Below are positions 2,839-18,557 of a stretch of 64,000 nt of DNA, piece by piece. This DNA is from an uncultured Thermoanaerobaculia bacterium. GTDB taxonomy: Bacteria > Acidobacteriota > Thermoanaerobaculia > Thermoanaerobaculales > Sulfomarinibacteraceae. Within the stretch, counting starts at the first letter, position 1. Each line of letters starts with the position of its first letter. Below the pieces are notes generated by a model that saw only the letters and a program-made list of their open reading frames with translations, was not told the origin of the DNA and did no database searches. The DNA lies in the NCBI GenBank assembly GCA_964423595.1, contig CAYRFI010000002.1:8567-72566 (forward strand). The letters are read 5' to 3'. Both the position numbers and the translations under genes were made by a program.

Positions 2839-2951
2839 ATTTCGAATTTCGGATTGCGAATTTCGGATTTTCCACCCACCCGCCCGAAAAATCTAGACCG
2901 TGGGAGGGCAGTGGTCAAATCCGAAATCCGAATTTCGAAATACGAAATCAG
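2839..2951. repeat. Intergenic heptad-array / G-run element, copy 2
   Basis: Left arm ATTTCGA ATTTCGG ATTGCGA ATTTCGG. Core CCACCCACCCGCCC (2872-2885; minus strand GGGCGGGTGGGTGG). Right arm AAATCCG AAATCCG AATTTCG AAATACG AAATCAG (2917-2951), inverted relative to the left arm and overlapping the kdsD stop. Confidence 0.8.
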
Positions 2952-3904
2952 AAAAGGCCGACGCCCCACAGGTCGTGGAGGTGCAGAACGCCCTTCAGCG
3001 GGCCATCGCCGTCGCAGACCATGAGCGAGGTGATTCTTCTTTCTTCGAGCAGCTTGAGCGCCGCAGTCGCCAGCTCGTCGGCGTTGATGCAGACACCGCC
3101 CGTGTGCATGACCTCGCTTGCGGTGTGGGCGAGCGGATCCGGGTCCCGCTCCATGAGCCGCCGCAAATCGCCGTCGGTGATGACCCCCAGCAACCGACCG
3201 GCGTCATCCTGAACAGTGGTCATGCCGAGTGCCTTGCGGCTCATCTCGTAGATCACGTCCTTCATCGCAGCGTCCGCGGTCACCCGCGGCACCTCTTCGC
3301 CGGAATGCATCAGCTCGCCGACCTTGAGGAATCGCTTCCCGAGCTTGCCGCCGGGATGGAGACGTGCGAAGTCTTCTTCCTTGAAGCCCTTCTTTACGGA
3401 CACCGCCATCGCCAGAGCATCGCCGAGGGCGAGGCTGGCTGTGGTCGAAGCGGTCGGCGCCAGGTTCATCGGACACGCCTCACGCCGCACTCCAACGTCC
3501 AGATGGAGGTCCGCGGCCTTGGCCAGCGCCGACTCCGGATTGGAGGTGATTGCGATCAGCGAAATCCCGATTCGTCGCAGTATGGCCAGCAGTTCGAGAA
3601 TCTCCTCGGTGGTTCCTGAGTTGGAGACCGCCACCACGAGATCGTTCTCGGTGACCATCCCGAGATCGCCATGGATGGCCTCTGCCGGATGCATGAAGAG
3701 TGCCGGAGTGCCGGTAGACCTCATGGTGGCAGAAATCTTGCGGCAGATGATGCCGGACTTGCCCAAACCGGTGAACACGACTCTTCCGACACAGCCCGCG
3801 ATGAGGTCCACCGCGCGATCGAACTCCTCGGGCAGATTCTCCATCAGGTTGCGGATGGCGTTGGCCTCGACCTCGAGCACCTGGAGGGCAACTTCGCGAC
3901 TCAC
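2948..3904 (-). CDS. kdsD: Arabinose-5-phosphate isomerase (KpsF/GutQ family; SIS + tandem CBS)
   Basis: VVFTGLGKSGIICRKISATMRSTGTPALFMHPAEAIHGDLGMV SIS signature, C-terminal CBS pair. 4-nt overlap with kdsA upstream. Confidence 0.85.
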   Translation of the reverse strand: MSREVALQVLEVEANAIRNLMENLPEEFDRAVDLIAGCVGRVVFTGLGKSGIICRKISATMRSTGTPALFMHPAEAIHGDLGMVTENDLVVAVSNSGTTEEILELLAILRRIGISLIAITSNPESALAKAADLHLDVGVRREACPMNLAPTASTTASLALGDALAMAVSVKKGFKEEDFARLHPGGKLGKRFLKVGELMHSGEEVPRVTADAAMKDVIYEMSRKALGMTTVQDDAGRLLGVITDGDLRRLMERDPDPLAHTASEVMHTGGVCINADELATAALKLLEERRITSLMVCDGDGPLKGVLHLHDLWGVGLF

Positions 3905-4734
3905 GGCGCCACCTCCCGGACTGCGGTAGACACCGCCTCGAGCTGTCCTATCAACCGATCGAACTCATCGAACGACAGCTGCGTAGCGGCATCGGATAGC
4001 GCTTTCGACGGGTTGGGGTGGACCTCGAGGAAGAAGCCATCGACCCCTGCCCCGGCCGCCGCCCGAGCCAGGTAGGAGTGAAATTTGCGCGAGCCACCAG
4101 TAGCGTGGCCGAGCTCACCCGGAAGCTGCAGCGAGTGGGTGACATCGAAGATCACCGGCGCAAAGCCCCGCATGGTCGGCAGCCCTCGCATGTCGACCAC
4201 TAAATTGTGATAGCCGAAGGTGGATCCCCGCTCCGTGAGCACCACGCGCTTGTTGCCGGTAGCTGCGATCTTTTCGACCGCGTTGGCCATGTCTTCGGGG
4301 GCCAAAAACTGGCCCTTTTTGACGTTGACCGGCAACCCGGTTTCGCCGCAGGCGTGGAGGAGATCGGTCTGTCGGCAGAGGAAAGCCGGCACCTGGAGGA
4401 CATCGACCACCTCGGCCGCGCGTGCCGCCTGCTCGGGATGGTGAACATCCGTGATCACCGGCAACCCTGTCGCTCGTTTGACCTCGTTCAGGGCCTCGAG
4501 TCCCACCTCTTCACCGGGCCCGCGAAAGCTCGACTCGGCGGAGCGGTTGGCTTTGTCGAAAGATGCCTTGAAGACCAGCGGCACGCCGTGGCGTCCGGCG
4601 ATCTCGCGAATCATTCCGGCCACCTCGACCACGAAATCCCGCGACTCGATAACGCACGGACCGGCGATGTAGACCGGCCGCGCACCGCCACCAATCTTCA
4701 GTCTGTCAACGAGATCGAAACCGTGACTCGCCAT
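3901..4734 (-). CDS. kdsA: 3-deoxy-8-phosphooctulonate (Kdo-8-P) synthase
   Basis: AGPCVIES, FKASFDKANRS, KKGQF, DVTHSLQLPG motifs. Start placed at ATG 4734 (MASHGFDL). The longer tracked ORF (to 5070) runs into the neighbouring gene. Confidence 0.9.
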   Translation of the reverse strand: MASHGFDLVDRLKIGGGARPVYIAGPCVIESRDFVVEVAGMIREIAGRHGVPLVFKASFDKANRSAESSFRGPGEEVGLEALNEVKRATGLPVITDVHHPEQAARAAEVVDVLQVPAFLCRQTDLLHACGETGLPVNVKKGQFLAPEDMANAVEKIAATGNKRVVLTERGSTFGYHNLVVDMRGLPTMRGFAPVIFDVTHSLQLPGELGHATGGSRKFHSYLARAAAGAGVDGFFLEVHPNPSKALSDAATQLSFDEFDRLIGQLEAVSTAVREVAP

Positions 4735-4793
4735 CGCGGGACAGTGTAGCAGCAGAGGAGCGAAGGATGACAATCGGACAAACAGGACGATTC

Positions 4794-6164
4794 TCAGCGC
4801 AATCCGAGCTTTTCGAGCTTGTCGTAAAGGGTGGAGCGCGAGATCCCGAGGATCTTCGCTGTGCGCTGGATGTTGGATTCCGTGATCTCGAGCACCCGCC
4901 GGATGTGTTCCTCCTCGATCTCGGCTAGGGATTTCGCATTCGTTTCGTCGATTGAACTTGACGAACGCAGCCCGCTCGGGAGGTGGGCCGGCATGATCCT
5001 GGTGCTTGTCCCCGCCCTGATCATCGCGGACTCGATCACGTTGCGAAGCTCGCGGGCATTCCCCGGCCATGAGTATCGGAGAAGAATCTCCTGCGCCTGC
5101 GGCGTAATGTCGGCGATCTCCCGCGTGACCAGAGGATTGAGGGCCCGCACGAAGTGCTGGGCGAGCTCGATGACGTCTTCACCCCGCTCCCGAAGCGGTG
5201 GGATATCGATCCGAAAGACCTCGAACCGATAGTACAGGTCGGCCCGAAAGCGTCCCTCGGCGACCTCGGTCGCGAGATCTCTATGCGAAGCAACGATGAA
5301 GCGCACGTCGGTCGTCAACTCGCGAACGCCTCCGACGCGCCGAAAGGTCCGGTTTTCGACGGCCTTCAGCAGCTTGCCCTGTGCCTGCGGTTGGAGTTCG
5401 GCGATTTCGTCCAAGAACACCGTTCCACCACTCGCGACCTCCAGCAAGCCCGGCTTGCGAATCGTCGCCCCGGTGAAGGCGCCCTTTTCGTGGCCAAAAA
5501 GCTCGGATTCGACCAGGGCCTCCGGCAGGCTGGCGCAGTTGACTTCGGTGAACGGCCCTGTCGCCCGCGGTGACAGGCCGTGGATACCTCGGGCAACGAT
5601 GTCCTTGCCGGTTCCCGTCTCCCCGTGCAAGACAACGGCGGATTCGGTACCCGCTACGGCGGCGACCTGCTCACGCACCCGTTTGATGACCTCGCTCGAG
5701 CCGATGAGCTCCGACAGGATTTGACCCTCTTCCGCTGCCCGCGACGCGTTGGCCTCCCTGTAGACCGACACCTTGCTGAGCGCCCGATGACGTTCGAGCG
5801 TCCGATCCACCGCCTTGGACAGAATCTCAAGCGTTACCGGTTTGGGTAGGAAATCATCAGCGCCACGCAGCATCGCTTCGACAACTGTTTGGATATCCGT
5901 CTGGCCGGTCAGCACCACCACCGATACCAGCTCGTCGCCGCCCTTCAGCCGGGGCAATAGATCGATGCCGTCCTCGTCCGGCAGCCCAAGGTCGAGCAGC
6001 ACGAGATCGATCGTACGCTCGGCGAGGAAGGCCTGCGCATCTGCGGAGGTCCTGACACTGTGCACCGTGTGGCCGTGACCCTGCAGCCAATCACAGAGGG
6101 CTGCGGAGGTGTCTGGATCGTCCTCGACGACGAGAATTCGACTTTCCGTTTGGGATGGCGCCAT
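4794..6164 (-). CDS. Sigma-54-dependent response regulator (NtrC family: REC-AAA+-Fis HTH)
   Basis: REC (ILVVEDDPD...LVLLDLGLPDEDG), Walker A GETGTGKD, sigma-54 contact loop EKGAFTGA, C-terminal HTH RTAKILGISRSTLYDKL. Start at ATG 6164. Confidence 0.9.
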   Translation of the reverse strand: MAPSQTESRILVVEDDPDTSAALCDWLQGHGHTVHSVRTSADAQAFLAERTIDLVLLDLGLPDEDGIDLLPRLKGGDELVSVVVLTGQTDIQTVVEAMLRGADDFLPKPVTLEILSKAVDRTLERHRALSKVSVYREANASRAAEEGQILSELIGSSEVIKRVREQVAAVAGTESAVVLHGETGTGKDIVARGIHGLSPRATGPFTEVNCASLPEALVESELFGHEKGAFTGATIRKPGLLEVASGGTVFLDEIAELQPQAQGKLLKAVENRTFRRVGGVRELTTDVRFIVASHRDLATEVAEGRFRADLYYRFEVFRIDIPPLRERGEDVIELAQHFVRALNPLVTREIADITPQAQEILLRYSWPGNARELRNVIESAMIRAGTSTRIMPAHLPSGLRSSSSIDETNAKSLAEIEEEHIRRVLEITESNIQRTAKILGISRSTLYDKLEKLGLR

Positions 6165-6350
6165 ATCGGTCTGATTGTACCGGAACCGCATGCAGCCCGG
6201 ACTTCGGACCAACGGGCACGATCTCTGGGAACGAATTCGCACGTATGTCCGATTCCCGGACGGCCCGGCTCGATCGCGCCCGCTGACCCGCGTCGTAGCG
6301 TTGGTGCAGGGCCTTTCGCGGGCAACGGCGACCTGCAGCCCCTGATTGCT

Positions 6351-6369
6351 GTGTCGTATTTCCGTACAC
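6351..6369. promoter_or_regulatory. Candidate enhancer (UAS) palindrome GTGTC-N9-TACAC
   Basis: GTGTCGTATTTCCGTACAC centred about 88 bp upstream of the GG of the 6447 sigma-54 promoter. A T9 tract (6411-6419) lies between them. Confidence 0.45.
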
Positions 6370-6446
6370 CCGTCGCCCGTCGACCTGCGACTCGTTCAAC
6401 GTCATAAACCTTTTTTTTTCAATTCATTACAGTCAGCCGGGCGACC

Positions 6447-6462
6447 TGGCATCAACCTTGCT
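6447..6462 (+). promoter_or_regulatory. Sigma-54 (-24/-12) promoter P1
   Basis: TGGCAT-CAACC-TTGCT with exact GG-N10-GC spacing. RBS GAGGAG 6475-6480 and ATG 6486 follow. Confidence 0.8.
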
Positions 6463-6485
6463 CTATCTGCCCGCGAGGAGGCCGA

Positions 6486-6905
6486 ATGAACTTCCGGCAC
6501 TGCACATCTCGATCGTCCCACCCCCTTGGCAAGGCCATCGTCGGTCTGTGCTCCCTTCTGGTGTGTCTTCTGATCTCCTCAGGCTCCGCATCGGCCGCAG
6601 ACGCCGGCGGTTCGGGTGGCTCGGTCTCCTATTCCATCCGCCTTGAGGTCGGGCTCTCCGGCCTCAATGGCGGGGGGTATGCCTCAATTGGAATGGAACA
6701 GAACGGCCCTGCCGTCGTCAGAGAGGTACTCGTTCCAAACCTCATAACCACGCTCGCCGATCGCTATCAGCGCCGGCAAGTGGAAGAAATCATCGCCAGT
6801 GTCGCGAATCAGTCTGTCGTCGTCATCGACGGCCAGGGGTTTGCGGTCAGCCCGTCCCAGGAAACCTGGGTGGCGTCGTCCGACGGAACGGTTCATTCGA
6901 TATGA
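6486..6905 (+). CDS. Small secreted protein, unknown function (first gene of sigma-54 cluster)
   Basis: Signal peptide ending SGSASA-AD, Gly-rich mature N-terminus. Preceded by RBS and sigma-54 promoter. Confidence 0.65.
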   Translation: MNFRHCTSRSSHPLGKAIVGLCSLLVCLLISSGSASAADAGGSGGSVSYSIRLEVGLSGLNGGGYASIGMEQNGPAVVREVLVPNLITTLADRYQRRQVEEIIASVANQSVVVIDGQGFAVSPSQETWVASSDGTVHSI

Positions 6906-7144
6906 CCGCGGAAAAGAAGGAGAATCCAGGTGTCAGAGGTCGGGAAACCGGTTTCCGGGGGCGTGTCCTCAAGGTTGGGTGGCACCAAACGGTGGCGCTC
7001 CCGGTTCATTGACTCCGGCTTCTGACTCCTGGGTTCTCGTTTTTCCGGCCCTCTCCACTCCCTCCCGGCGTCCGCCGGCGTTCGTTCTGCACCACAATGA
7101 TACAAAAGGTCCCGTCTCGGGCCTCTCAAACTCGATCCCAAAGT

Positions 7145-7160
7145 TGGCATGGCACTTGCT
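7145..7160 (+). promoter_or_regulatory. Sigma-54 (-24/-12) promoter P2
   Basis: TGGCAT-GGCAC-TTGCT with exact spacing. About 190 nt upstream of ATG 7353, which implies a long leader. Confidence 0.75.
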
Positions 7161-7352
7161 GCTTTGTTGGGCGTGAGATGAGCGACGTGTGATTCGTCGA
7201 GCGCCGTGCCCGGGTTCAACGCCACCCTCCGAATCCGGACACGCAACCCTTCGAATCGGGCCGCCCAGCACGCACTCCATCTCATATCGGAAGTTCACCG
7301 GCCTGACAACGGCCACACGACAATCGGAAAACAGAGAAAAGGAGTACGAACA

Positions 7353-7955
7353 ATGAAAAAGTGTCTCATCGCCAGTTTGATCATCATGGGTGCTGCCCTG
7401 GTAGCACCGGGAACGGCGTCAGCGCAAGCTCAAGGATCCACTGACATCGACATCTCGCTGCCAGACATCGTGATCCTCCACTACTTCAGCAACGTGGACA
7501 TTGCGATCACCCAGTCCGCCCTCGGCACCTTTTTGACCGGGGCGGCCGGCAATGCGGCCGTTGACGAAGGCAGTGCATCGCCCGCGGCCGGAGGATTCAC
7601 GCAGAACGTCGCCCTCGCACCAACGGCCCTGAGCGGCGATCCGTCCAGCGCTCTGCTCACGATTCGTAACGCGTGGGCGGTCCGCTCGATCTCGCTCGCC
7701 GGCGGGACCGACACGCAGCTCGTGATCACCAACACCGACAACACGCTCGACCACACCTCGACAGCAGCTTCGATCACGGTCACCAACGTCGCCGTGGACG
7801 ACGGCTCCAGCAACGGTTCGACGATCACTTTCCCGGCACCCGGCCTGGTGAGCCCCCGGATGGGAGATGTCGAGCTCACGCTCGACCTCACCGCCGCGGT
7901 CAACGCCGGTGACTACCTCGACGGCGAGTACACCCTTACAGCGTCGAATATCTGA
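7353..7955 (+). CDS. Secreted fibre-subunit-like protein (SCPU/DUF4402-like C-terminal strand)
   Basis: RBS AAAGGAG 7338-7344, signal peptide MKKCLIASLIIMGAALVAPGTASA. Alternating hydrophobic N-terminus DIDISLPDIVILHY. C-terminus AGDYLDGEYTLTASNI. Confidence 0.6.
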   Translation: MKKCLIASLIIMGAALVAPGTASAQAQGSTDIDISLPDIVILHYFSNVDIAITQSALGTFLTGAAGNAAVDEGSASPAAGGFTQNVALAPTALSGDPSSALLTIRNAWAVRSISLAGGTDTQLVITNTDNTLDHTSTAASITVTNVAVDDGSSNGSTITFPAPGLVSPRMGDVELTLDLTAAVNAGDYLDGEYTLTASNI

Positions 7956-7972
7956 AAACCCGACACGAGGCA

Positions 7973-8004
7973 GACGGTCTGGCGCCACACGGCGCCAGAC
8001 CGTC
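7973..8004 (+). promoter_or_regulatory. Perfect 14-bp stem-loop between subunit genes (attenuator or mRNA stabiliser candidate)
   Basis: GACGGTCTGGCGCC-ACAC-GGCGCCAGACCGTC with every position paired. No T-tract downstream. Confidence 0.7.
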
Positions 8005-8035
8005 GCGGCCACTCGGATCGAGCGAGGGACCCATC

Positions 8036-8620
8036 ATGAATAACCGTCTCACACTCTGCCTTCTGAGCCTGATCATCCTGGCATCCGTCCAGGCGTCGGC
8101 GGGGAATGGCGGCGGTCAGTCGGGCAAGAGTTCCGACTGGGACGAATTCGCTCAGGAGTCGAAGTTCACCTGGAAGCACCACATCAATCTGAAACGAATC
8201 ACCGCCGACGAACTCACCGGCTCCGCGACATCCCGGGGCAACTCATCTTCGCTCGCAATCGCAACAACGAACGGCTACGGTGTCACCCCGTCACTCGACC
8301 TCGGATCCATCTCCGGTACAGTCGTCCGAATCGTTCAATCCCTGTGGCGACTGCGTGTGCCCTCACCGGCCTCCGGCGATGATCTCGACATTTACTACGA
8401 GGTTGTCGGCCTCAACGGCCATCGCGGCTGCTTCAGTCACGAGGACCAACCGGAATCGGAAATCTCAGTCACCGTCCATCCTGCGGTCCCATTCGTGAGC
8501 GAACGGGGTCAGCACTGGTCCTTCATCGAAGGCGACGTGGTGTTGCACCTCGACATCAACAGCGCCCAGACGGCCGGCAGGTACAGCGGAACGATGACCA
8601 TCACCGTCCACCAGCTCTGA
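8036..8620 (+). CDS. Second secreted fibre-subunit-like protein
   Basis: Signal peptide MNNRLTLCLLSLIILASVQASA. C-terminus AGRYSGTMTITVHQL matches the same G-x-Y-x-G-x-x-T-h-T-h motif. Confidence 0.55.
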   Translation: MNNRLTLCLLSLIILASVQASAGNGGGQSGKSSDWDEFAQESKFTWKHHINLKRITADELTGSATSRGNSSSLAIATTNGYGVTPSLDLGSISGTVVRIVQSLWRLRVPSPASGDDLDIYYEVVGLNGHRGCFSHEDQPESEISVTVHPAVPFVSERGQHWSFIEGDVVLHLDINSAQTAGRYSGTMTITVHQL

Positions 8621-8651
8621 TCGCCGGCACAGCTCCTCTGGAAGGAAACAC

Positions 8652-9575
8652 ATGACTCGCATCAGCAACATTCTGCTCATTTCAGCCTTGATATTCGGGC
8701 ACGTCGCGTCGGCGCAGACGGTCACGGAAACCGCTTCACCGCCCGCCCAAATCGCGGTCAGCCCCTCCAAGTTCGAGGTCGTCATCGGCCCGAAACCTGC
8801 AGTCGAGTCGCTCCGGGTGTTCAACATGAGCTCCGACCCAGTCACCGTCTTGGTGAATGTGGCGACCTGGGATCTCGACGAAGACAGCAGAGTCCGGATT
8901 GTCGAACCCACCGAGCAGAGTCTTGACCAGTGGTTGGTCATCAACCCCCTCCAGTTCACGGTTGGGGGTGGCGAGTCGCAGGCGGTCCGATTCTCCATCA
9001 GACCGCGCGTCCAACCCGATCCGGGCGAACACCGGGCGATGATCTACCTGACCCAGCAGCCCCAGGAAGACACATCCGCGCCGGTCACGGTGCGCTTTCG
9101 GCTCGGGGTCGCCATATACGGCTATGTCGGTGACATCCGCCGGGTGGGGACGCTTCACGGAGTCACGATCGGTGAAGGATCGAACCCGATCAGCGCCGCG
9201 TTTGACATCGCCAGCGATGGAAACGCGCACATCCGTCTCCGTGGTCAGTACGCCGTGTGGCCGGCCGCAACCTACCCCGGGTGGGAGCGCACCGACGAAA
9301 TCCCCAAGCTCGAGCTCCCGAAAACCGTTGTCTCCGAACCGATCGTCGACGCGGGTTTTCTTCCGACGACTCCGGTGCTGGCCGGCACTCGCCGCGAGAT
9401 CGTCCTCCACATCGGAAAAACGCTGCCGCCCGGGAACTACGTGCTCGACCTCAACGGGCGCCTGGGTGACACCAGCGTCGATCGCGGCCTGCCCTTCACC
9501 GTGGCGCCGGTCCCACCCGCCGCCAACCCCCTCAGTGATGCACCGAAGGCCGTGGTTGAGAAATCACCTGAATGA
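8652..9575 (+). CDS. Periplasmic PapD-like chaperone candidate
   Basis: Signal peptide, then beta-rich pattern ISPSKFEVVIGP...LRVFNMSSDPVTVLVNV...LVINPLQFTVGGGESQAVRFSIRP. A second beta-rich lobe follows. ATGA overlap with the next gene. Confidence 0.5.
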   Translation: MTRISNILLISALIFGHVASAQTVTETASPPAQIAVSPSKFEVVIGPKPAVESLRVFNMSSDPVTVLVNVATWDLDEDSRVRIVEPTEQSLDQWLVINPLQFTVGGGESQAVRFSIRPRVQPDPGEHRAMIYLTQQPQEDTSAPVTVRFRLGVAIYGYVGDIRRVGTLHGVTIGEGSNPISAAFDIASDGNAHIRLRGQYAVWPAATYPGWERTDEIPKLELPKTVVSEPIVDAGFLPTTPVLAGTRREIVLHIGKTLPPGNYVLDLNGRLGDTSVDRGLPFTVAPVPPAANPLSDAPKAVVEKSPE

Positions 9576-12262
9576 CCCTATGCCTGCCGATCCGCTCGAG
9601 GCGCAACGGTCATTCTGCCGCGGGCTCGGCGTCTCGTCCCATGAGACCGCCGTGGTCGGCGTTGGCGCTAGCAGCGGTCCTTGCGACGACCTTAACCGCC
9701 GCCGCCGGCGGCGAAGTGCTCGCGATTGCCGCATCGGCCGCCGCCGCGGATCGAGCAACGGGCGCCATCGATATCGCGAGCACATCCGAGTGGGACAGGA
9801 TCTACCCAGAGAACACCATGATCGTCGGTGTGATCATCAACGGTATCGAGGCCGGGAATCTCGAGGTCATCCCTGACGGAGAACTCTTCATCATTCCCCT
9901 GAAGGCATTCGCCGAGATATCCGGGTGCAGCGTGGAGCTTTCCGACGGGTCGGTCCTGCTCGTAACGCCGCTCGGAGCGGTGGAGCTCACGCCGGACGAT
10001 CTGGTCGAGATTCGAGGAACCATCTACGTCACCGAGGAGGCAATCGAAACGAAGCTGGCTACGCCGGTGGAGTTCGACAGCAGCGAGTTCGCCCTTGTTT
10101 TTGATCTCCCGTGGCGCCGCAATCACGGCGAAGGCTCCAAGCTCGACACGGTGACCGTCGCTCCCGAGGCTACACCACCCGCCGCCAGCATTTCGACCTT
10201 GCGCTCGGACATTTTCTTCACCGATCTCGATGACCGCAGCTTCTACTCGACTTCGACTGTCGCGGATGGCCGTCTCGCGGGCGGGCGCTGGAGGATCCGT
10301 TACCTCGATGACCTCGCAGGTGGGCAGACGCTGCGGGAATATGCATGGCTCCGCACCTTTGACCGCAATCTGATGTTCATCGGACAGCAGACCCTCAACC
10401 TACACCCTGTCCTCCAGTCGTTCGAACTCACCGGCTATCAGCATGCATGGACAAATCAACCCCTCGATCTCTATTACGTCTCTCCTGAGCCGCGCGAGCT
10501 CCTCCCGCGGCGTCTTCAGCCTTCGATGTCATTCCGAGGGCCGGGACCGCCCGGAGGGTGGGCGGACCTTCAGATCGACGGCATCTTCATCTCCCGCCAG
10601 CCCATCGGTCTGGACGGGACCTATGAGTTCCTGGACGTACCTTTGGTGACACGGCAGCTCAGCACCATCGACGTCTACGTGTACGACCGTCACAACCCAG
10701 CCGTGCCGGTCGCGATTCATCAGCAGACCCAACCAATCTCGGAGTACATGCTCGGCCGGGGAGCGATCGTCCATATGGGCGGCATTGGCCGCGGCGGCAA
10801 TTTTTTCCAGGATCTCATCGACCAACGGCTGGATTCCGAGTTCGCCGGTTTCTACCAGTGGCGGTGGGGTATGACGGACAACCTGACTCTGGAGGCCGCG
10901 GCGCAGGAGGATGCGGGCCATCGTCAGGTCATGGGGGGCTTCGTCGCGCGCCTTTTCGGCAACACCGTCGTGTCGCTTGGCGCCGGCGTCGCCAATGGTC
11001 GCGCAATCGGCTACGATCTGAACCTCGAGCACTATCAGGCACGGAGGAGGATCCTTGCACGGTCGCAGATCTTCCAGCCCGGCTACCGGAGCGACGGTTC
11101 GCTCGCCAGCCACGACCACTATCTCGAAATCGGGTACGCTCCCCATCGCAACCTGGATGTGTCCTTGATCGGACGCAGCCGCGGCATCGGTCCAGACGAG
11201 GTGGACTACATCCTCCCGGCCCTCTCCTGGTGGCCCGACTCACGTCTGTCGTTGCGGGCGCGGCCGGACGCCCTCGGCGACTATCGATTCGACCTCTTCT
11301 ACCGGTTCGGGCGAACCGCGCGGTTGACAGTCAGTCACCAGGACAGGACGTTTACCGACCTCAGCGTCGCCACCGGCCGGAGAACCCGGCTTTCCCTCGG
11401 CGGGGAACACGGTGGAGGGGCGGCGGACCAATACCATGCCATCCTGAGTTGGAACGGCAAGGGGCGCCGGCAGCCGAGCTTCAATGCCGGCCTCTTGTGG
11501 GCTCACGGCAAGCCGGGGTTCCGGACCGGCGGCCAAGTCACCCTGGCGCCGGGGATTCTCGGGCGGATTGATGTGGAGAGCGATCCGGCGACGTTCGCCA
11601 CCATCGGCCGGCGAAGCACCAGGTTGGTCATTGGCGCTAACGTCGATCTCGCGTTCGCGCGTGGGCGCGTGGTCCCTGCCGGGTCATTCTCGCAGCGCGG
11701 CGATCGGGGTGCGATCGCCGGAAAGGTGATGGTCGACGCACCGATCGGCTTTACGAGCTATCGCCTCAACGACCTGGTGGTTCTCGTCAACGGCCAACCG
11801 GCAGGCCGAACAGTCTTCGGCGGGACCTACTTCATCGGCGGCCTCCAGCCCGGGATCTACAGGGTGACGTTGGACACCGAGAACCTGCCTCTCGAGCTCG
11901 TGCCGGTCGACGCCACGGTCGTCGTTGAGGTTGCCGCATCGGCGGTAACCAGCGGAGACCTCAGGGTCCGGCCCGAGTTCGGCATCGCCGGCAGATTGGT
12001 GGACGCCGCCGACCGCGCGGTCGCCGGCGCGCTGCTCGAGATCATCGACGGCAACGGATCGCGGGTCGGCGTGACCTCAACCGACCAATTCGGACTGTAT
12101 CGCTTCGATGGGCTCGGAATCGGTGCTTACTCCGTTCGCCCGGTGGCGGGCTCCTTTCCGGAGCGGGAGGCGGCGCTGCCGTCGATCGACGTCGAGATCA
12201 CCAATGATTTCCTATTCGGCCAGGATCTTCAACTCCCCTTTGAGCCGGCTGCCCAACAGTAA
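9572..12262 (+). CDS. Outer-membrane usher-like protein with C-terminal CarboxypepD_reg-like domains
   Basis: Usher-N-like IVGVIINGIEAGNLEVIPDGELFIIPLKAFAEISG. Plug-like ADLQIDGIFISRQPIGLDGTYEFLDVPL...IDVYVYD. Long beta-strand-like middle section. C-terminal GIYRVTLD and GLYRFDGLGIGAYSV. The signal peptide may start at the internal Met (9641). Confidence 0.5.
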   Translation: MTLCLPIRSRRNGHSAAGSASRPMRPPWSALALAAVLATTLTAAAGGEVLAIAASAAAADRATGAIDIASTSEWDRIYPENTMIVGVIINGIEAGNLEVIPDGELFIIPLKAFAEISGCSVELSDGSVLLVTPLGAVELTPDDLVEIRGTIYVTEEAIETKLATPVEFDSSEFALVFDLPWRRNHGEGSKLDTVTVAPEATPPAASISTLRSDIFFTDLDDRSFYSTSTVADGRLAGGRWRIRYLDDLAGGQTLREYAWLRTFDRNLMFIGQQTLNLHPVLQSFELTGYQHAWTNQPLDLYYVSPEPRELLPRRLQPSMSFRGPGPPGGWADLQIDGIFISRQPIGLDGTYEFLDVPLVTRQLSTIDVYVYDRHNPAVPVAIHQQTQPISEYMLGRGAIVHMGGIGRGGNFFQDLIDQRLDSEFAGFYQWRWGMTDNLTLEAAAQEDAGHRQVMGGFVARLFGNTVVSLGAGVANGRAIGYDLNLEHYQARRRILARSQIFQPGYRSDGSLASHDHYLEIGYAPHRNLDVSLIGRSRGIGPDEVDYILPALSWWPDSRLSLRARPDALGDYRFDLFYRFGRTARLTVSHQDRTFTDLSVATGRRTRLSLGGEHGGGAADQYHAILSWNGKGRRQPSFNAGLLWAHGKPGFRTGGQVTLAPGILGRIDVESDPATFATIGRRSTRLVIGANVDLAFARGRVVPAGSFSQRGDRGAIAGKVMVDAPIGFTSYRLNDLVVLVNGQPAGRTVFGGTYFIGGLQPGIYRVTLDTENLPLELVPVDATVVVEVAASAVTSGDLRVRPEFGIAGRLVDAADRAVAGALLEIIDGNGSRVGVTSTDQFGLYRFDGLGIGAYSVRPVAGSFPEREAALPSIDVEITNDFLFGQDLQLPFEPAAQQ

Positions 12263-12478
12263 CCACGCGGTCGAAGGCGGCGCTGGCCGCCCTGGTCCCG
12301 GCCACCCTCCATCCCGCATATCTCCGACTTTCTGGTGCGGCCGCGGGGCCGGCGCGATACGCGGGCTGTCTCTTGTTTCCATGTCTGATATCCGGACACA
12401 CCGGCGAGCGCAGGAAATTCCCTCGCAGGTTCCCTTTTCATGCGGGTTTTCGTCCGGACGGCACCGCTGACTCACTCC

Positions 12479-12501
12479 GAGTGTCCTGATTCCAGACACT
12501 C
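12479..12501. promoter_or_regulatory. Candidate enhancer (UAS) palindrome GAGTGTC-N9-GACACTC
   Basis: Perfect 7-bp inverted arms. The core GTGTCCTGATTCCAGACAC is centred about 87 bp upstream of the GG of the 12576 promoter, the same geometry as 6351-6369. Confidence 0.5.
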
Positions 12502-12575
12502 TTCGAGATCCTTGTCGTTTTTAGGACTGAACCATAAAGCATTCATATCCTTATATTTAACGATTCTCGCAAAGT

Positions 12576-12591
12576 TGGCATCGTTGTTGCT
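12576..12591 (+). promoter_or_regulatory. Sigma-54 (-24/-12) promoter P3
   Basis: TGGCAT-CGTTG-TTGCT with exact spacing. RBS AAGGAGG 12607-12613 and ATG 12619 follow. Confidence 0.8.
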
Positions 12592-12618
12592 CTAGTCCTC
12601 AGCAGTAAGGAGGCCGCC

Positions 12619-13053
12619 ATGAAACGCTTCGTCGCCCTTTTCGCCCTGATCGCCCTCGTAACCCTGTCCGCCTGCTCGTCCGCTTCGTGGCTCTCCCGCG
12701 AGGAACAAGCCTGGAATAACTACCAGGAACGGCACGGTCTGAAACAGGGTGACGCCCTGTCGCCGGATGACTGGGATGCCCTGCTCCGCTGTGCCCGCCT
12801 GTACGCGGTCAACAAGACACCGACCATCTCCGAGATCCAGAAGACCGCGGAGTGGATCGCTCTGTATCACCACTGGGGCACCTTCCACGAGCGCCTCGAG
12901 ATGCTGGAAAAGCCGATCACAACCGCCGATCGTCTCTACCTCGCAGAACTGGCAGTGGCGATCTCATCGCGTCTCACGACCGACCCCGGCAGCGCCCATC
13001 TCGCCGATCAGCCGGTGCGCAGTGCAGCCATGACTGAACTCATCTCCGACTGA
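12619..13053 (+). CDS. Lipoprotein, unknown function (last gene of sigma-54 cluster)
   Basis: Lipobox LVTLSAC after a hydrophobic signal. 144 aa. Confidence 0.65.
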   Translation: MKRFVALFALIALVTLSACSSASWLSREEQAWNNYQERHGLKQGDALSPDDWDALLRCARLYAVNKTPTISEIQKTAEWIALYHHWGTFHERLEMLEKPITTADRLYLAELAVAISSRLTTDPGSAHLADQPVRSAAMTELISD

Positions 13054-13073
13054 TTTTCAGCGAACCCGTCAGG

Positions 13074-13105
13074 GCCGCGGCTCATCCCCTCGGGGAGGCC
13101 GCGGC
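13074..13105. terminator. GC-rich stem-loop between convergent genes
   Basis: GCCGCGGC ... GCCGCGGC 8-bp stem enclosing an inner CCCC-TC-GGGG stem. No clear T-tract. Confidence 0.4.
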
Positions 13106-13159
13106 TTCGTCGTCTCCAGCTCCCCTTCGAGGCGAGGTCGTGCGGTCGCCCGCCTCCGT

Positions 13160-14056
13160 TCAAACCACAACGGGCGGCGGCGACAGCGGCAACAGGACCT
13201 CGATGCACAACCCACCGTCGCCGGCCGTATAGCCGGTTATCTGACCACCGAGACCGTGGACGATCTCGACGGCGTTTCCCGGGAGGTCCGCTCCACGCGG
13301 CAACTCCTCAGTGCGGTCGCCTCCGCGATCGCTCGCCCGATTGATCAAGTCCTCGGCATCCTCCCCTACGGCCCACGCCACCGCGAGTAACAGGCACGAA
13401 CCGGCGATACCAGGGCCGGATCGGTCGCCACCCTCGATATCCGTCACGTTGAGGGTCACCGACAGAAGGCCTCCTCCCTCTGTGAGGGTCGTCGCAGCGC
13501 AGTCGAGCAGGGACATGACCAACTGATAGGCCTTGATAGGATCCACGACGATGGCGGGAGCGCTGGCGGTCACGTTTTGGCGCACCTTCACGTTGTCGCC
13601 GAGCGACGCTCTGGCCAGCTTGACGCCTTCCTTGACCACGGGGTGCAGTGGGATGGGCGGTGGCCCACCGCCTGCGCTGCGGGCGGCATACAGGACCATC
13701 GCGGTGAGATCCTTCGCGCGGTCCACCGCTTCATCGATTGACCTGAGCCTGGCTTGCATCGGATCCCCGTCCCCCAGGTTGAGGCGCGCCAGCTCGGCTG
13801 ATCCTCTGATAACAAACAGGAGATTGTTGATCTCGTGGGCCACTGCGGCCGCGAGGTGGCCGATGATGACCATCGAACCGACGTCGCTCCCACGGGCCGC
13901 CGAGGCCTCCTCCCAGGCTTCCAACACCCGGCGTAGATCTGCAACCGCCGCGAGGGCCTCATCGACGCCGGCGCCTCCACTCGCCTTCAGCGCTGCAACG
14001 GCGGTGTCCACCCGCGCCAGAGGCTGCCTCCATCCGTCGTGCTTCGAGACCATCAC
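13160..14056 (-). CDS. Histidine-kinase-like protein with intact DHp His box but degenerate ATPase domain
   Basis: H-box IIGHLAAAVAHEINNLLFVIRGSAEL. The C-terminal region is HATPase-like in length and pattern, but I cannot find N-box Asn or DxGxG boxes. Start overlaps the upstream stop (GTGATG). Confidence 0.7.
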   Translation of the reverse strand: MMVSKHDGWRQPLARVDTAVAALKASGGAGVDEALAAVADLRRVLEAWEEASAARGSDVGSMVIIGHLAAAVAHEINNLLFVIRGSAELARLNLGDGDPMQARLRSIDEAVDRAKDLTAMVLYAARSAGGGPPPIPLHPVVKEGVKLARASLGDNVKVRQNVTASAPAIVVDPIKAYQLVMSLLDCAATTLTEGGGLLSVTLNVTDIEGGDRSGPGIAGSCLLLAVAWAVGEDAEDLINRASDRGGDRTEELPRGADLPGNAVEIVHGLGGQITGYTAGDGGLCIEVLLPLSPPPVVV

Positions 14057-16755
14057 TCCCCCGTTGACGCCAGCGCCTGGCGAACGGCGCCGGCGAGCTG
14101 CGCCACCGTGAAGGGTTTGGCGATGAACGACGTTCTCTCGGCCGTCTCCAACAGGTCCCGGAGCGCCTCGTCCGTGTAGCCGGAAGAGAACAGAAAGGCG
14201 AGCCGTGGCTTCTTCGCGCGAACGCGTTCCATCAGCTCACGCCCGCCGATCGACGGCATCACGACATCACTGATCACGAGGTCGATCTCGACGTCTTGCC
14301 GCAACACCTCGAGGGCTTGCCTCCCGTTCGTGGCCTCGATCACCGCGTATCCGAGCGCCTCGAGCATGCCGACAATCGCTGATCGGACCGCCTGCTCGTC
14401 CTCCACCACAAGGATTGTCTCATCGCCACCTTCGGCCTCCCTGTCCCCCGAGTCGCTCTTTTTGCGGACCGGCCCGGTCGCAACGGGGATGAAGACATCA
14501 AACCTGGTACCCTCCCCGGGAGAGCTCCGAACGTCAATGAACCCCCCGTGCTGTTTGACGATGCCATAAACGGTCGCCAACCCCATTCCGGTGCCTTTTT
14601 CCTTGTCTTTGGTCGTGTAGAACGGTTCGAAGACATGGGTCAGGGTCGTTGCATCCATGCCAGAACCGTCATCCTCAACCGAAACGCAAACATAGGTTCC
14701 ATCCGCTACACCGGGTCGGCCCAACCCGGATTCCTCGACGAACACCCGCTCCTCGACTCCAATCTCGATCTTTCCGCCCTCAGGCATCGCATCGCGAGCA
14801 TTCACGACCATGTTCAGAAGAACCTGGCCCAGCTGTCCGCGGTCGGCGCGAACGGTCGGCACGCTTTCCCCATCCCGAAGCGTGAGCTCGATGTTCTCCG
14901 GTATCACCCGGCGAAGGATCTCAAGCTCATCCGTCAACAGCGCCTTGAGGTCCAGCGCCTGCATCTCGAGAAGCTGCTGGCGCGCGATCGCCAACAGGTG
15001 TCGGGTCAGCTCCGCTCCGCGTTTGACGGTTTCGCGGATCACCTTGAACTCGCCAAGCTCTTCGCCGGCCTGGGGATAGCAGAGCCGCAGCAGTTCGGCC
15101 GAGCCCGAAATCGACATCAAAAGGTTGTTGAAGTCGTGAGCGATCCCGCCGGCGAGCTGGCCCAGCGCCTCGAGCTTCTGCACCTGCGCCAACTGTTGTT
15201 CCAGCCTCCGTCGCTCGCTGATGTCGATCAAGCTGCCCTCGATGATCGACGGATGGCCGCGATCGTCTTCGATCAGGCTCGCGCTCAGGACAACGGTCAG
15301 CGGCTCACCGTCCCGCCGCCTCATCGGAACCTCCCAGCCAATCACCGATCCGTTGTTGGCAAGCTCGTCGAGGAACCGCTGCCGATCCTCGGGCGACCCA
15401 TAGAGGAGAGTGACTTCGACGCCCAGGACCTCCTCCGGCGAGCCGAAACCGAACATTTTCGCCACCGCCATGTTGCAGCTCAGGAGCCGCCCGTCGATGG
15501 TCGAGCGAAACACGCCGGCGACGTTTCGTTCGAAGAGCTGGCGGTACCGCTCCTCACTCGCCGCCAGTGCCGACTCCGCCTTCTTGCGTTCGGTGATGTC
15601 GGTCAGGGCTCCGACGATCGAGACGGTCCTGCCGTCCTCCACCATCGGGGCCTCGCGAACTTCGACCCACACCAAACGGCCGGTTTTAGACCGCAGCTCG
15701 AGCTCGTACGGCGGCTGCCGCTCACCGGTGGCTATGGCTGTCCGGGTGAGCTCGTAACCACGTTCATTGAGCGGATTGTCGGTCAAGAAATCGATCCAGT
15801 TTCTCATCGCCTCCTCGGGCTCGCAGTCGAGGATCTCGCGACATTGCGGACTCAGGTAAGTCAGCACGTTGTCTGCGCCGTGCGAGTAGAAGAGATTGGT
15901 GCTGTGTTCGACGATGTTCCGCAAGCGCTCCTCGCTCTCCCGCACCGCATCCTCGGCGAGCCGTGCTTCCGTGATGTCCTGGGCGACGCCGACCACCTGC
16001 TGAATCTCGCCGGCGTCATTTGCGACGGCAAAGCCCCGATCGCGGATCAGCCGCACTCGGCCGTCCGGACGCACGATCCGGTACTCCTCGGCATAGGCAC
16101 CGGACTCCGCCAGTCGAGCGAAGGCCTCGTTTGTGCACCGCCGGTCGTCCGGATGGACGTACATGACCCAGCCCGACGGATTCTCGTACAGATCTTGGGG
16201 GTCGAGACCCCACACCCGTTCATACGCCGGGCTGGCGTAGACGACCATGCGAGTCTTCCAGTCGACCACCCAAAACACATCGTCGAGGGTCTCGAACAAT
16301 CGACGGTAGGTGCGATCACTGCGGCGCAGCGCAGCCTCGGCCTCAGCTAGCCGGTTTTCGGTCCCGACCTCGGTCAGAACCCACCGAACGGTCCTGGGGA
16401 GGCCGCCCAGCAGGCCTTCGTCTTTGACGATGTAGTCTCTGGCGCCGAGCCGCATCATCTCGACCGCCACGCGCTCGTCACCGTGAGCGGTCATGACGAT
16501 GAACGCCGGAAGGTCTCCACGTCGGTCGAGAGCCCCGATGATGTCACGCCCATTCTCCTCCCCGAGAATGAGATCGAGCACCATCAGGGAGGGGGCGCTC
16601 TCGGCGACCGCATCGAGGGCCGACGCCACCGAATGGACGGCCGCAACGCGGTAGCCTTCAAGCTCCAGTCTCATGCTCACGAGCCCGGCGAGGTCCTCGT
16701 CGTCCTCCACCACGAGAACGAGTGGCGTGATGCCGGCCGGGTCGTTCTCACGCAT
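14053..16755 (-). CDS. Hybrid sensor kinase (REC - 3x PAS - HisKA - HATPase - REC)
   Basis: N-terminal REC LVLVVEDDEDL...LMVLDLIL, PAS repeats, H-box GGIAHDFNNLLMSISGSAELL, G-boxes DDGSGM and GTGMGLATVYG, C-terminal REC ILVVEDEQAV...DLVISDVVMPSIGG. Start at ATG 16755. Confidence 0.9.
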   Translation of the reverse strand: MRENDPAGITPLVLVVEDDEDLAGLVSMRLELEGYRVAAVHSVASALDAVAESAPSLMVLDLILGEENGRDIIGALDRRGDLPAFIVMTAHGDERVAVEMMRLGARDYIVKDEGLLGGLPRTVRWVLTEVGTENRLAEAEAALRRSDRTYRRLFETLDDVFWVVDWKTRMVVYASPAYERVWGLDPQDLYENPSGWVMYVHPDDRRCTNEAFARLAESGAYAEEYRIVRPDGRVRLIRDRGFAVANDAGEIQQVVGVAQDITEARLAEDAVRESEERLRNIVEHSTNLFYSHGADNVLTYLSPQCREILDCEPEEAMRNWIDFLTDNPLNERGYELTRTAIATGERQPPYELELRSKTGRLVWVEVREAPMVEDGRTVSIVGALTDITERKKAESALAASEERYRQLFERNVAGVFRSTIDGRLLSCNMAVAKMFGFGSPEEVLGVEVTLLYGSPEDRQRFLDELANNGSVIGWEVPMRRRDGEPLTVVLSASLIEDDRGHPSIIEGSLIDISERRRLEQQLAQVQKLEALGQLAGGIAHDFNNLLMSISGSAELLRLCYPQAGEELGEFKVIRETVKRGAELTRHLLAIARQQLLEMQALDLKALLTDELEILRRVIPENIELTLRDGESVPTVRADRGQLGQVLLNMVVNARDAMPEGGKIEIGVEERVFVEESGLGRPGVADGTYVCVSVEDDGSGMDATTLTHVFEPFYTTKDKEKGTGMGLATVYGIVKQHGGFIDVRSSPGEGTRFDVFIPVATGPVRKKSDSGDREAEGGDETILVVEDEQAVRSAIVGMLEALGYAVIEATNGRQALEVLRQDVEIDLVISDVVMPSIGGRELMERVRAKKPRLAFLFSSGYTDEALRDLLETAERTSFIAKPFTVAQLAGAVRQALASTGE

Positions 16756-17109
16756 TGCCCTGCCGGCCGTTCGAAATGTCCCGTACGCCCAAATCGGGTC
16801 GAACCGACCACAAGCGGCCGCCGCTCCGAGCGAATATTCCGGAACGCTCCGATGTCTCGCGACGGTCCCCTGCCTGGGATTCGGTCGCAACCATCAGCAC
16901 CAACGCCTCCCTCGGTTGTCGGCCCGGTGGAAAGGTCATCACAGCCAGGTGCTCGAGATCCTCGCCCGGGCGCCAACGTCCATCCCGAAATCGAGGTTAC
17001 CACAATCGTGTTCGGACTCTTCTCAGTCCTTGAAGCCAATTCGGCGGTGTTAACGGGACACCTGATTGGTCGAAAGGAGGCTTTTGGTAAACTTGAAACG
17101 AGGTTCGGA

Positions 17110-18099: not shown

Positions 18100-18117
18100 C
18101 GTCCCCTCCCCTTTGTG

Positions 18118-18144
18118 AACGGGGTCTGTGGTTCTGACCCCGTT
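18118..18144 (+). terminator. Stem-loop between convergent genes
   Basis: AACGGGGTC-N9-GACCCCGTT followed by TCC. Short T run only. Confidence 0.45.
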
Positions 18145-18161
18145 TCCTGGCGACTGGACGA

Positions 18162-18557
18162 CTACTCGCTCAGGAGTTCTCCGATCTGTTGTAGCAGGTC
18201 GTCGAACTCGAAAGGCTTGTAGACCACCCTGTCGGGCTGTGCAAAGTCGCTGAACAACTGCTCCCGATCTGGCTCGTCGGAGAGGTCTCGAGCTGTAAAG
18301 AGGATGATCCTGTTGCGGCGCTCATAAACTCCCGCCGCCTCGTCCTCGCGAATCGCTCGCGCCACTCGGTACCCATTCTCACCGGGAAGCATGACATCGA
18401 GGAGAACTAGGTCGGGTCGGGAAATCCGCACCGCGCCAAGGCCCTCGAGCCCGTTCGCAGCGGTCAGCACCTCGTACCCCGCCCTCTCCAAGGCCACCCG
18501 GGTCGTGGTGAGGATGTCCGGGTCGTCGTCAACCACCAAGATCGTCGCCTTCGTCAT
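18162..18557 (-). CDS. Single-domain (CheY-like) response regulator
   Basis: ILVVDDDPDIL...LVLLDVMLPGENG...KPF. ATGA overlap with the upstream kinase. Start at ATG 18557. Confidence 0.85.
   Translation of the reverse strand: MTKATILVVDDDPDILTTTRVALERAGYEVLTAANGLEGLGAVRISRPDLVLLDVMLPGENGYRVARAIREDEAAGVYERRNRIILFTARDLSDEPDREQLFSDFAQPDRVVYKPFEFDDLLQQIGELLSE

Follow-up and report, generated by a model that had tools for sequence, protein, structure and literature searches.

A probable chaperone-usher assembly operon of a deeply divergent lineage, with conserved sigma-54 promoters, in an uncultured Thermoanaerobaculia bacterium

Does a group of genes for exported proteins in an uncultured Thermoanaerobaculia bacterium encode a surface assembly system that annotation by sequence has passed over? 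The genes lie within a 64-kb stretch of contig CAYRFI010000002.1 (assembly GCA_964423595.1), referred to here as the window. Six open reading frames (ORFs) are present on the + strand (6486-6905, 7353-7955, 8036-8620, 8652-9575, 9572-12262 and 12619-13053), as the sequence-only reading of this DNA had listed them; the signal peptides of the products and one lipobox, LSAC, were read from the translations by eye. That reading described the six as a divergent chaperone-usher-type system under sigma-54 control, and the usher fold and homology, the PapD_N matches, the gene order and the conserved promoters bear it out. What had been listed as a “six-gene cluster” comprises a cassette of four assembly genes and, beside it, regulon members that are specific to the lineage. 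The cassette, or core (7353-12262), encodes a pair of small subunits that are paralogues, a PapD-like chaperone and an usher of 896 residues. We consider it very probable that these core genes form a chaperone-usher assembly operon of a deeply divergent and uncharacterised lineage, a reading supported by the subunit-subunit-chaperone-usher order, which is strict across phyla. In what follows, related loci around usher relatives carry L-numbers and members of the usher family carry P-numbers. The features of the core, with lengths in amino acids (aa), are as follows.

7353-7955, + strand: subunit 1, 200 aa, probable major pilin, cysteine-free (homologues, AlphaFold2 (AF2) model, Foldseek)
7970-8006, + strand: perfect 14-bp GC-rich stem-loop without a T-run, between the subunit genes (free energy -44.3 kcal/mol for 80 nucleotides (nt), z -5.9)
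8036-8620, + strand: subunit 2, 194 aa, subunit-1 paralogue, probably a minor, tip or adaptor component (hhalign)
8652-9575, + strand: predicted PapD-like periplasmic chaperone, 307 aa (PapD_N, hhalign)
9572-12262, + strand: outer-membrane usher, 896 aa (AF2, Foldseek, hhalign)

The 896-aa protein is an usher by fold and by profile homology, and the plugged, usher-like barrel that had been proposed for it is supported. The AF2 model, built on an alignment of 21 homologues, has a mean predicted local distance difference test score of 76.7 and a predicted template-modelling (TM) score of 0.59. It consists of an N-terminal mixed domain (residues 83-177), a long run of antiparallel strands (206-702) and two C-terminal sandwiches, with an insert of about 80 residues and six strands after strand six, as in FimD and PapC. 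When the model was searched against the PDB with Foldseek, the best 18 matches were all FimD or PapC, with expectation values (E) down to 2.7e-27 over about 890 aligned columns, and TM scores of 0.57-0.59 against isolated translocation pores. The best non-usher barrels (TonB-dependent receptors, LptD) reached E of about 1e-6 or weaker. The full-length root-mean-square deviation (rmsd) from FimD and PapC, 14-15 Å, is as expected for a multi-domain protein with moving domains.

Profile-profile comparison with hhalign was aimed at homology, beyond fold alone, with reversed sequences as the control. Classical profiles were assembled from the fim operon of E. coli together with 11 chaperone-usher operons carried on plasmids, giving 12 ushers, 11 chaperones and 13 pilins. 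An alignment of 78 usher-family members matched the 12 classical ushers with 97.5% probability (E 7e-12, 672 columns), against 1.3% for the reversed control. The alignment is collinear with FimD from the N-terminal domain (NTD) through strands beta1-6, plug and beta7-24 to the two C-terminal domains (CTD1 and CTD2), the FimD domain limits being those of the published structure. The corresponding hhalign segments of the window protein are listed by residue.

Residues 80-190: FimD NTD
Residues 209-306: FimD strands 1-6
Residues 307-394: FimD plug
Residues 395-728: FimD strands 7-24
Residues 729-802: FimD CTD1
Residues 803-858: FimD CTD2

The domains of the protein can be placed at about 80-190 (NTD), 209-728 (barrel, with the plug at about 307-394), 729-802 (CTD1) and 803-880 (CTD2). 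The last is of CarboxypepD_reg type, and the C-terminal domain of that kind that had been noticed by eye is the only Pfam match in the protein (residues 805-867, E 5e-10). Many usher homologues are longer, at 1,000-1,250 aa, and carry extra domains (Cds6_C, NTF2-like, in 4 of 21 and LysM in 3 of 21); such long ushers include P0006, P0011, P0012, P0014 and those of the Nostocales loci L032-L066. In the distant member P0387 the CarboxypepD_reg match falls in the plug region. The usher gene begins within the chaperone gene, the stop and start codons sharing the tetranucleotide ATGA at 9572-9575 as previously pointed out, and the same 4-nt overlap is found in the two closest relatives, L003 and L004. 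The true start is nevertheless uncertain, because the signal peptide would be of a more ordinary kind if translation began at another in-frame ATG, that at 9641.

The 307-aa protein was proposed to be PapD-like, and homology over its N-terminal domain points to a PapD-like chaperone. PapD_N is matched by 40 of 43 relatives (best E 1.9e-9), the window protein itself scoring below threshold (E 9e-3). By hhalign the family matches the 11 classical chaperones with 93.6% probability (E 2e-7) over the N-terminal domain, and its reversed control gives 0.3%. In all, 301 homologues were found at about 45-69% identity. The family motif P-x-P-G-E-H-R-A-M-I-Y aligns with the classical P-x-D-R-E-S-L-F-W-L-N, and the alignment stops before the G1 strand. 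The classical carboxylate anchor (Arg8/Lys112) is not evident in the family, because the column of FimC Arg8 holds Glu; a conserved Arg or Lys lies two residues upstream. There is also an invariant R113 in the strand aligned to classical F1, and the C-terminal half has an invariant R248 and near-invariant Y200 and Y263. These are at most candidate counterparts of the two-domain carboxylate anchor of archaic and alternative chaperones, which has Arg in strand F of domain 1 and Arg plus Tyr in domain 2 (PMC4654587).

The two small proteins upstream of the chaperone are the candidate substrates. For the first of these genes the mechanical ORF opens at GTG 7206; ATG 7353 is taken as the start because it is preceded by an AAGGAG Shine-Dalgarno ribosome-binding site and fits the length of about 200 aa seen in 113 homologues. 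No Pfam family and no PDB sequence matched this subunit-1 family. The N-terminal peptide DIDISLPDIVILHY and the C-terminal peptides to which the sequence-only reading had drawn attention are present in the translations and belong to the most conserved segments of the family, namely the first 20 or so mature residues (Q-A-x-G-A-T-D-x-D-I-T-L-P-D-I-V-I-L-H-Y-F) and the C-terminal A-G-x-Y-x-D-G-x-F-T-L-T-A-T-N-I. Between these, at residues ~63-99, is a Gly/Ala-rich loop that is unusual for rod pilins. The AF2 model of subunit 1 scores 88.1 for local confidence, and about 45 of its 50 top Foldseek matches are chaperone-usher pilins (CfaB, the FimH pilin domain, FimG, FimA, PapE/H, SafA, CsuA/B), so the immunoglobulin (Ig)-like fold expected of a subunit is weakly supported by this model. 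The subunit-1 and subunit-2 families are paralogous, matching each other by hhalign with 93.7% probability (E 2e-7); subunit 2 of the window is 28% identical to its positional equivalent in Fischerella.

The further proposal that both proteins are SCPU/DUF4402-type subunits did not hold at the family level and was rejected. Among 44 subunit-2-type and 57 subunit-1-type proteins there was no match to SCPU (PF05229), and DUF4402 was matched below threshold by one of each type: the subunit 2 of the window itself (18.6 bits, where the cut-off is 25.2, in a match confined to the last 20 residues) and a single subunit-1-type protein (E 0.04). The subunit-1 family also differs in its cysteines, since 55 of 57 mature sequences have none, whereas all 13 classical pilins collected have two each; subunit-2-type proteins are mixed in this respect.

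The stem-loop between the subunit genes has counterparts at the same position, with different stems, in acidobacterial and Nostocales loci (L003, L004, L006, L014, L015, L017, L023 and L065). In the classical pap and fim operons, how far the major subunit outnumbers the assembly proteins is set by a hairpin that follows the major pilin gene. The position of the present hairpin, behind the first subunit gene, supports subunit 1 as the major subunit. The hairpin is probably an attenuator or messenger-RNA stabiliser through which more major subunit is made relative to the assembly proteins. An Rfam scan of 6000-13300, long leader included, found no known RNA element.

How widely is this arrangement conserved? 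A scan of species-representative genomes gave 110 usher relatives, of which 80 loci were fetched. Carriers are Thermoanaerobaculia, other Acidobacteriota and many Nostocales (Nostoc, Calothrix, Rivularia, Tolypothrix, Fischerella), with single carriers in Gemmatimonadota, Nitrospinota, Gammaproteobacteria and candidate-phylum metagenome-assembled genomes (MAGs). Synteny was counted in 71 loci, those whose upstream DNA extends to 3 kb or more. The chaperone gene lies directly upstream of the usher gene in 69 (the other two being cases of overlap in ORF calling), at least one subunit gene is present in 67 and at least two in 65, and in these 65 the order is always subunits, chaperone, usher, on one strand. 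The closest named relative is a Thermoanaerobaculales MAG with 61% usher identity. At E<=1e-30 an exhaustive profile search returned 1,036 representative proteins, some of which match only through repeated CarboxypepD_reg domains; of the best 150 matches (50%-identity clusters), about 130 are full length. The sequence-only reading expected all six products to be annotated as hypothetical. This is so for the 113 subunit-1 homologues, but some chaperone homologues are named “fimbria/pilus periplasmic chaperone” by NCBI and usher relatives are named “carboxypeptidase regulatory-like domain-containing protein”.

Two associations were seen in cyanobacterial loci. In most of the Nostocales loci L013-L070, a gene for a receiver-domain protein of about 138 aa and one for a receiver-containing protein of about 345 aa lie some 2.5 and 5.5 kb downstream of the usher gene, and these may be cyanobacterial regulators or may reflect mere synteny among close relatives. 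In Fischerella PCC 9605 (L001:5531-8251), a gene for a 906-aa PPC-domain protein lies directly upstream of the four-gene cassette; it may encode an associated secreted or adhesin protein.

What would switch the operon on in Thermoanaerobaculia? The regulatory features of the window, with distances in nt, are the following.

4794-6164, - strand: NtrC-family sigma-54 enhancer-binding response regulator (REC, AAA+ with GAFTGA, HTH_8), divergent from the 139-aa gene
6447-6461, + strand: promoter P1, TGGCATCAACCTTGC, 39 nt before the 139-aa gene
7145-7159, + strand: promoter P2, TGGCATGGCACTTGC, 208 nt before the subunit-1 start
12576-12590, + strand: promoter P3, TGGCATCGTTGTTGC, 43 nt before the lipoprotein gene
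6246-6262, no strand: candidate enhancer (upstream activating sequence), TGTCCGATTCCCGGACG, TGTC-N9-GACA, 201 nt upstream of P1
6352-6368, no strand: candidate enhancer, TGTCGTATTTCCGTACA, 95 nt upstream of P1; same position, -92 to -95, in L003, L008 and L083
12382-12398, no strand: candidate enhancer, TGTCTGATATCCGGACA, 194 nt upstream of P3
12482-12498, no strand: candidate enhancer, TGTCCTGATTCCAGACA, 94 nt upstream of P3
6931-6957, no strand: degenerate TGTC-N9 site (6931-6947) overlapping the palindrome GGAAACCGGTTTCC (6944-6957), a one-mismatch match at about -200 to -214 of P2; possible weak enhancer site

The activator is of NtrC type, as had been recognised, with Sigma54_activat (E 6e-63), Response_reg (E 5e-23) and HTH_8 (E 3e-11) domains and the GAFTGA loop in its translation; its gene is on the minus strand and divergent from the first gene of the cluster. 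The strict sigma-54 pattern TGGCA[CT]-N5-TTGC[ATC] has only three matches in the 64 kb, at 6447, 7145 and 12576, all on the + strand and 39-208 nt before cluster genes; these, of the form TGGCAT-N5-TTGC, are the three promoters that had been proposed. A further TGGCAC-N5-TTGC match outside the cluster (27660-27674), near the start of an ORF of about 1,000 aa with a receiver domain, fails this stricter pattern. Sigma-54 promoters also precede subunit 1 in L003, L005, L008, L025, L082 and L083, and precede homologues of the 139-aa protein in L003, L008 and L083. Cyanobacteria lack rpoN/sigma-54, and since the phylum is without this factor it is to be expected that the cyanobacterial loci have scattered pattern matches only.

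A pattern made from two of the enhancer sites matches, at up to three mismatches, just the four candidate enhancers of P1 and P3 in the window. In relatives the palindrome has the consensus TGTCCGG-N3-CCGGACA. It occurs upstream of the promoters of the 139-aa protein homologues in tandem in L008 (-198/-95) and L083 (-193/-92) and singly in L003 (-94), and upstream of the subunit-operon promoters in L003 (-230/-154), L008 (-155/-76), L025 (-239/-149) and L082 (-236/-147), over a background of 0.14-0.21 sites per 300 nt. To judge from these comparisons, both the promoters and the enhancer-like palindrome are conserved in relatives, and the palindrome would be the site bound by the activator. P2 may rely on weaker binding, or else on the sites of P1 some 800 nt away. 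Direct repeats of CGACCTGC upstream of P1 were also considered as an enhancer and were dropped, as they are not enriched in the window and are absent at P2 and P3.

The remaining genes of the cluster and its immediate neighbours are as follows.

6486-6905, + strand: 139-aa secreted protein, p139, co-inherited with the activator
12619-13053, + strand: 144-aa lipoprotein with lipobox LSAC, P3 regulon, unique to this genome
13160-16890, - strand: convergent sensor genes, a HisKA-only protein (13160-14056) and a PAS-HisKA-HATPase-REC hybrid kinase (14053-16890) (Pfam)

The claim that all six genes are conserved together stands for the four core genes, broadly, and not for the other two. The pair formed by the activator and p139 is confined to some Acidobacteriota among the related loci and was absent from all other lineages there. 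Activator orthologues (E<1e-200) are divergent beside a p139 homologue in L003, L008, L012 and L083, where the pair is downstream of the usher gene and not, as here, upstream of the operon. Six p139 homologues were found, all beside the cassette in Acidobacteriota, that of L003 being 34% identical; no Pfam, NCBIfam or subunit profile gave a match to p139, and when p139 was considered as a third pilin, comparison with the subunit profiles gave a marginal 62% confined to the signal peptide and first strand. Homologues of p139 (L003, L004, L008, L012 and L083) have a mature N-terminus with alternating hydrophobic residues, A-S-G-T/S-V-S-L/Y-x-I-R-L-E, and a subunit-like C-terminal end, V-H/F/Y-S/A-I/L. 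A small substrate of the chaperone is one thing that p139 could be. The lipoprotein is without a homologue in the 82 related loci, and its promoter has the same two-site enhancer geometry as P1; it is a genome-specific member of the regulon that stands outside the conserved assembly system.

The convergent kinase pair that had been noticed downstream proves to comprise the HisKA-only protein and the hybrid kinase, and these genes are likely to provide the signal input to the activator. Two further proteins of the signalling set at 13160-18797 are of REC-HD_5 (HD-GYP-like) and REC type; in L003, L005 and L008, too, the system has similar kinase and REC-HD_5 genes beside it, which hints at a conserved sensory input, possibly linked to cyclic di-GMP. 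On the other side, the two genes upstream of the activator (2948-4750, - strand) look by eye like KdsD, an SIS and CBS arabinose-5-phosphate isomerase, and KdsA, 3-deoxy-8-phosphooctulonate synthase. We take these to be genes of lipopolysaccharide core biosynthesis, consistent with a diderm host.

Several results weigh against reading the core as a chaperone-usher operon under sigma-54 control. PF00577 (Usher) was matched by none of 21 close members of the usher family (E up to 1) and none of 10 distant ones (E up to 0.1). HMMER profiles searched against the PDB found no usher (E up to 10), no chaperone and, for both subunit families, no pilin; the only matches of the family profiles were to C-terminal sandwich domains (NOMO, SdrD). 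Against the single FimD and FimC sequences hhalign gives only 2% for the usher family and 0.9% for the chaperone family, and for both the signal appeared only with multi-sequence classical profiles and enlarged query alignments. The chaperone match is to the N-terminal domain alone. The subunits have no significant sequence similarity to known pilin families, neither family matching the 13 classical pilins by hhalign (a 31% match of subunit 1 covers the signal peptide only), and the Foldseek matches of subunit 1 are individually weak (best E 3e-3, TM 0.3-0.5). Lastly, P2 in the window has no good palindrome, only the degenerate site, whereas its relatives have two good ones.

Could the 896-aa protein instead be a generic transporter or porin with a CarboxypepD_reg domain, like SusC and other TonB-dependent receptors, in a cluster for nutrient uptake? 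CarboxypepD_reg is its one Pfam match and the source of the NCBI names of its relatives, and TonB-dependent receptors do appear lower in the Foldseek list. However, ushers outscore other barrels in that list by about 20 orders of magnitude, all six usher domains align in order by hhalign, the CarboxypepD_reg domain sits C-terminally at the CTD2 position and not N-terminally as in SusC-like receptors, and a PapD_N chaperone gene always adjoins. We regard nutrient uptake as highly improbable. The proposal that the sigma-54 motifs are incidental, with the operon driven by other, unrecognised promoters and the activator regulating something else, has a little more to be said for it: the want of a strong palindrome at P2, the cyanobacterial versions that function without sigma-54, and the E. 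coli consensus used to look for sigma-70 promoters, from which acidobacterial ones may differ. It too is improbable, as a scan of 7.3 kb with that consensus found no sigma-70-like promoter, all three strict matches in the 64 kb fall in the cluster with the right orientation and distance, and promoters and palindromes are kept in relatives even where the activator lies on the other side of the operon (L003, L008).

A more serious question is whether real assembly machinery makes something other than a filament, such as an amorphous or capsule-like layer, a coat, or singly displayed adhesins. Precedents exist in polyadhesin capsules of the Caf1 type and in myxobacterial spore-coat protein U, the Gly/Ala-rich loop of subunit 1 is atypical of rod pilins, and there are two subunit types only with no obvious two-domain adhesin in the window. 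On the other hand, subunits that polymerise need strands such as the conserved alternating-hydrophobic one at the N-terminus and the one at the C-terminus, the hairpin behind the subunit-1 gene suggests that this structural subunit is made in many copies, and donor-strand-exchange polymers are, by established knowledge, molecular fibres even in the case of Caf1. We judge a non-filamentous product unlikely, while giving it more weight than either of the other alternatives.

If the core is a chaperone-usher operon, donor-strand exchange and fibre formation are the most likely mechanism, and the following course can be proposed. In chaperone-usher systems generally, the Ig fold of a subunit is incomplete and is filled first by the G1 strand of the chaperone, later by the N-terminal donor strand of the following subunit. 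The two Sec-exported, paralogous subunits would be captured in the periplasm by the PapD-like chaperone and handed to the N-terminal domain of the 896-aa outer-membrane usher, whose plug would leave the barrel, the subunits being joined into a polymer and passed through to the surface. Most of the fibre would consist of subunit 1, with subunit 2 as a minor, tip or adaptor component, roles that we infer for both, and the likely donor strand is the conserved N-terminal strand of subunit 1, DIDISLPDIVILHYF. The NtrC-type activator, probably phosphorylated by the neighbouring hybrid kinase, would bind the tandem TGTCCGG-N3-CCGGACA sites and switch on the three sigma-54 promoters, and with them p139, the subunit-chaperone-usher operon and the lipoprotein gene, while the stem-loop that follows the subunit-1 gene probably ensures that the major subunit outnumbers the assembly proteins.

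Annotation by sequence has missed what is a genuine chaperone-usher system, one that belongs to a large and phylogenetically broad lineage. Surveys and classifications use the Pfam Usher profile and the known pilin families, both of which the window lineage escapes, so that its distribution has been invisible. It provides a candidate adhesion or biofilm fibre for filamentous cyanobacteria and Acidobacteriota, one that is open to genetic tests in those Nostocales that can be cultured. A pilin that lacks the conserved disulfide prompts the question of how subunits are stabilised before assembly, for example in anaerobes, and the layout of promoters plus palindrome defines a testable regulon for an orphan NtrC-type activator.

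How does the window system compare with those already known? With the classical pili (FimC/FimD/FimA, PapD/PapC) it shares the order of usher domains (NTD, 24-strand-type barrel, plug after strand 6, CTD1, CTD2), a PapD_N chaperone with small Ig-like subunits, the gene order from subunits through chaperone to usher and the hairpin after the major subunit gene. It differs in that there is no HMMER-level similarity to PF00577 or to the pilin families, the usher being only about 12-16% identical to FimD; in that the classical pilin disulfide is absent from subunit 1 and the FimC Arg8 column is Glu; in a CTD2 that scores as CarboxypepD_reg, unlike that of classical ushers; and in its control by sigma-54, where classical pili have phase variation or Lrp/H-NS circuits.

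The archaic (sigma-class) pili, such as A. baumannii Csu, P. aeruginosa CupE and Synechocystis CccS/CccP/Slr0019, are likewise spread broadly beyond the Enterobacteria, cyanobacteria included, and their operons are likewise short with few small subunits. CsuA/B is among the structural matches of subunit 1, and the C-terminal motif AG-Y-x-G-x-x-T-x-T of the window subunits resembles that of SCPU-type subunits in archaic systems. The definition of archaic systems, however, calls for SCPU (PF05229) subunits together with PF00345 chaperones and ushers of PF00577 (PMC4390875), and neither SCPU nor PF00577 was ever matched in the window family; archaic pilins also carry invariant cysteines (PMC4654587), in contrast to subunit 1. 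The Synechocystis proteins were considered as members of the same family and rejected, as they are a canonical archaic set of SCPU, PapD_N and PF00577 (PMC4390875; 10.1101/130278). The cyanobacterial tubular (CT) pilus was rejected as well, being a different system without a chaperone (PMC12397347).

In its control, the window system resembles NtrC/PilR-type regulation of appendages, with the REC-AAA+-HTH architecture, GAFTGA, -24/-12 promoters and tandem palindromes about 100 and 200 nt upstream. The best-known cases of such regulation concern type IV pilin or flagellar genes. Unlike those precedents, the TGTCCGG-N3-CCGGACA palindrome is defined by comparison alone. The sequence-only reading knew of no enhancer-dependent arrangement around an usher core, and our literature search agrees within its limits: it found no description of the window usher family or of a sigma-54-dependent chaperone-usher operon, which is not proof of absence.

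The nearest likeness is to a cluster at L007:11491-15777 with two true DUF4402 proteins (E 7e-9 and 2e-10), which has the same order of two subunits, a chaperone and a large outer-membrane protein. Its chaperone is a full-length homologue of the window chaperone family (99.8%, E 3e-30, as against 25% for the classical chaperones), and its large ORF (>717 aa), without a Pfam match, aligns weakly but collinearly with the window usher family (50.7%, 277 columns, as against 0.6% for the classical ushers). The subunits of that cluster are true DUF4402 proteins whereas those of the window are not, and the link between the two systems appears to be the shared chaperone type. The comparison suggests that DUF4402 proteins may be the pilins of a sibling chaperone-usher lineage; the literature search found no paper that mentions DUF4402, and hence no functional precedent, an absence that again proves nothing. 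Six usher clades (alpha, beta, gamma and kappa, together with pi and sigma) have been classified by way of PF00577. Our judgement is evenly divided on the wider proposal that the window family and the DUF4402-type clusters together form a major unclassified branch of chaperone-usher systems outside those six, marked by a chaperone type of its own, by ushers that escape sequence profiles and by a major pilin that is free of cysteine and would not need disulfide formation, occurring in hundreds of lineages among the Acidobacteriota, the Nostocales and further environmental phyla, and wired in Thermoanaerobaculia to a dedicated sigma-54 enhancer regulon.

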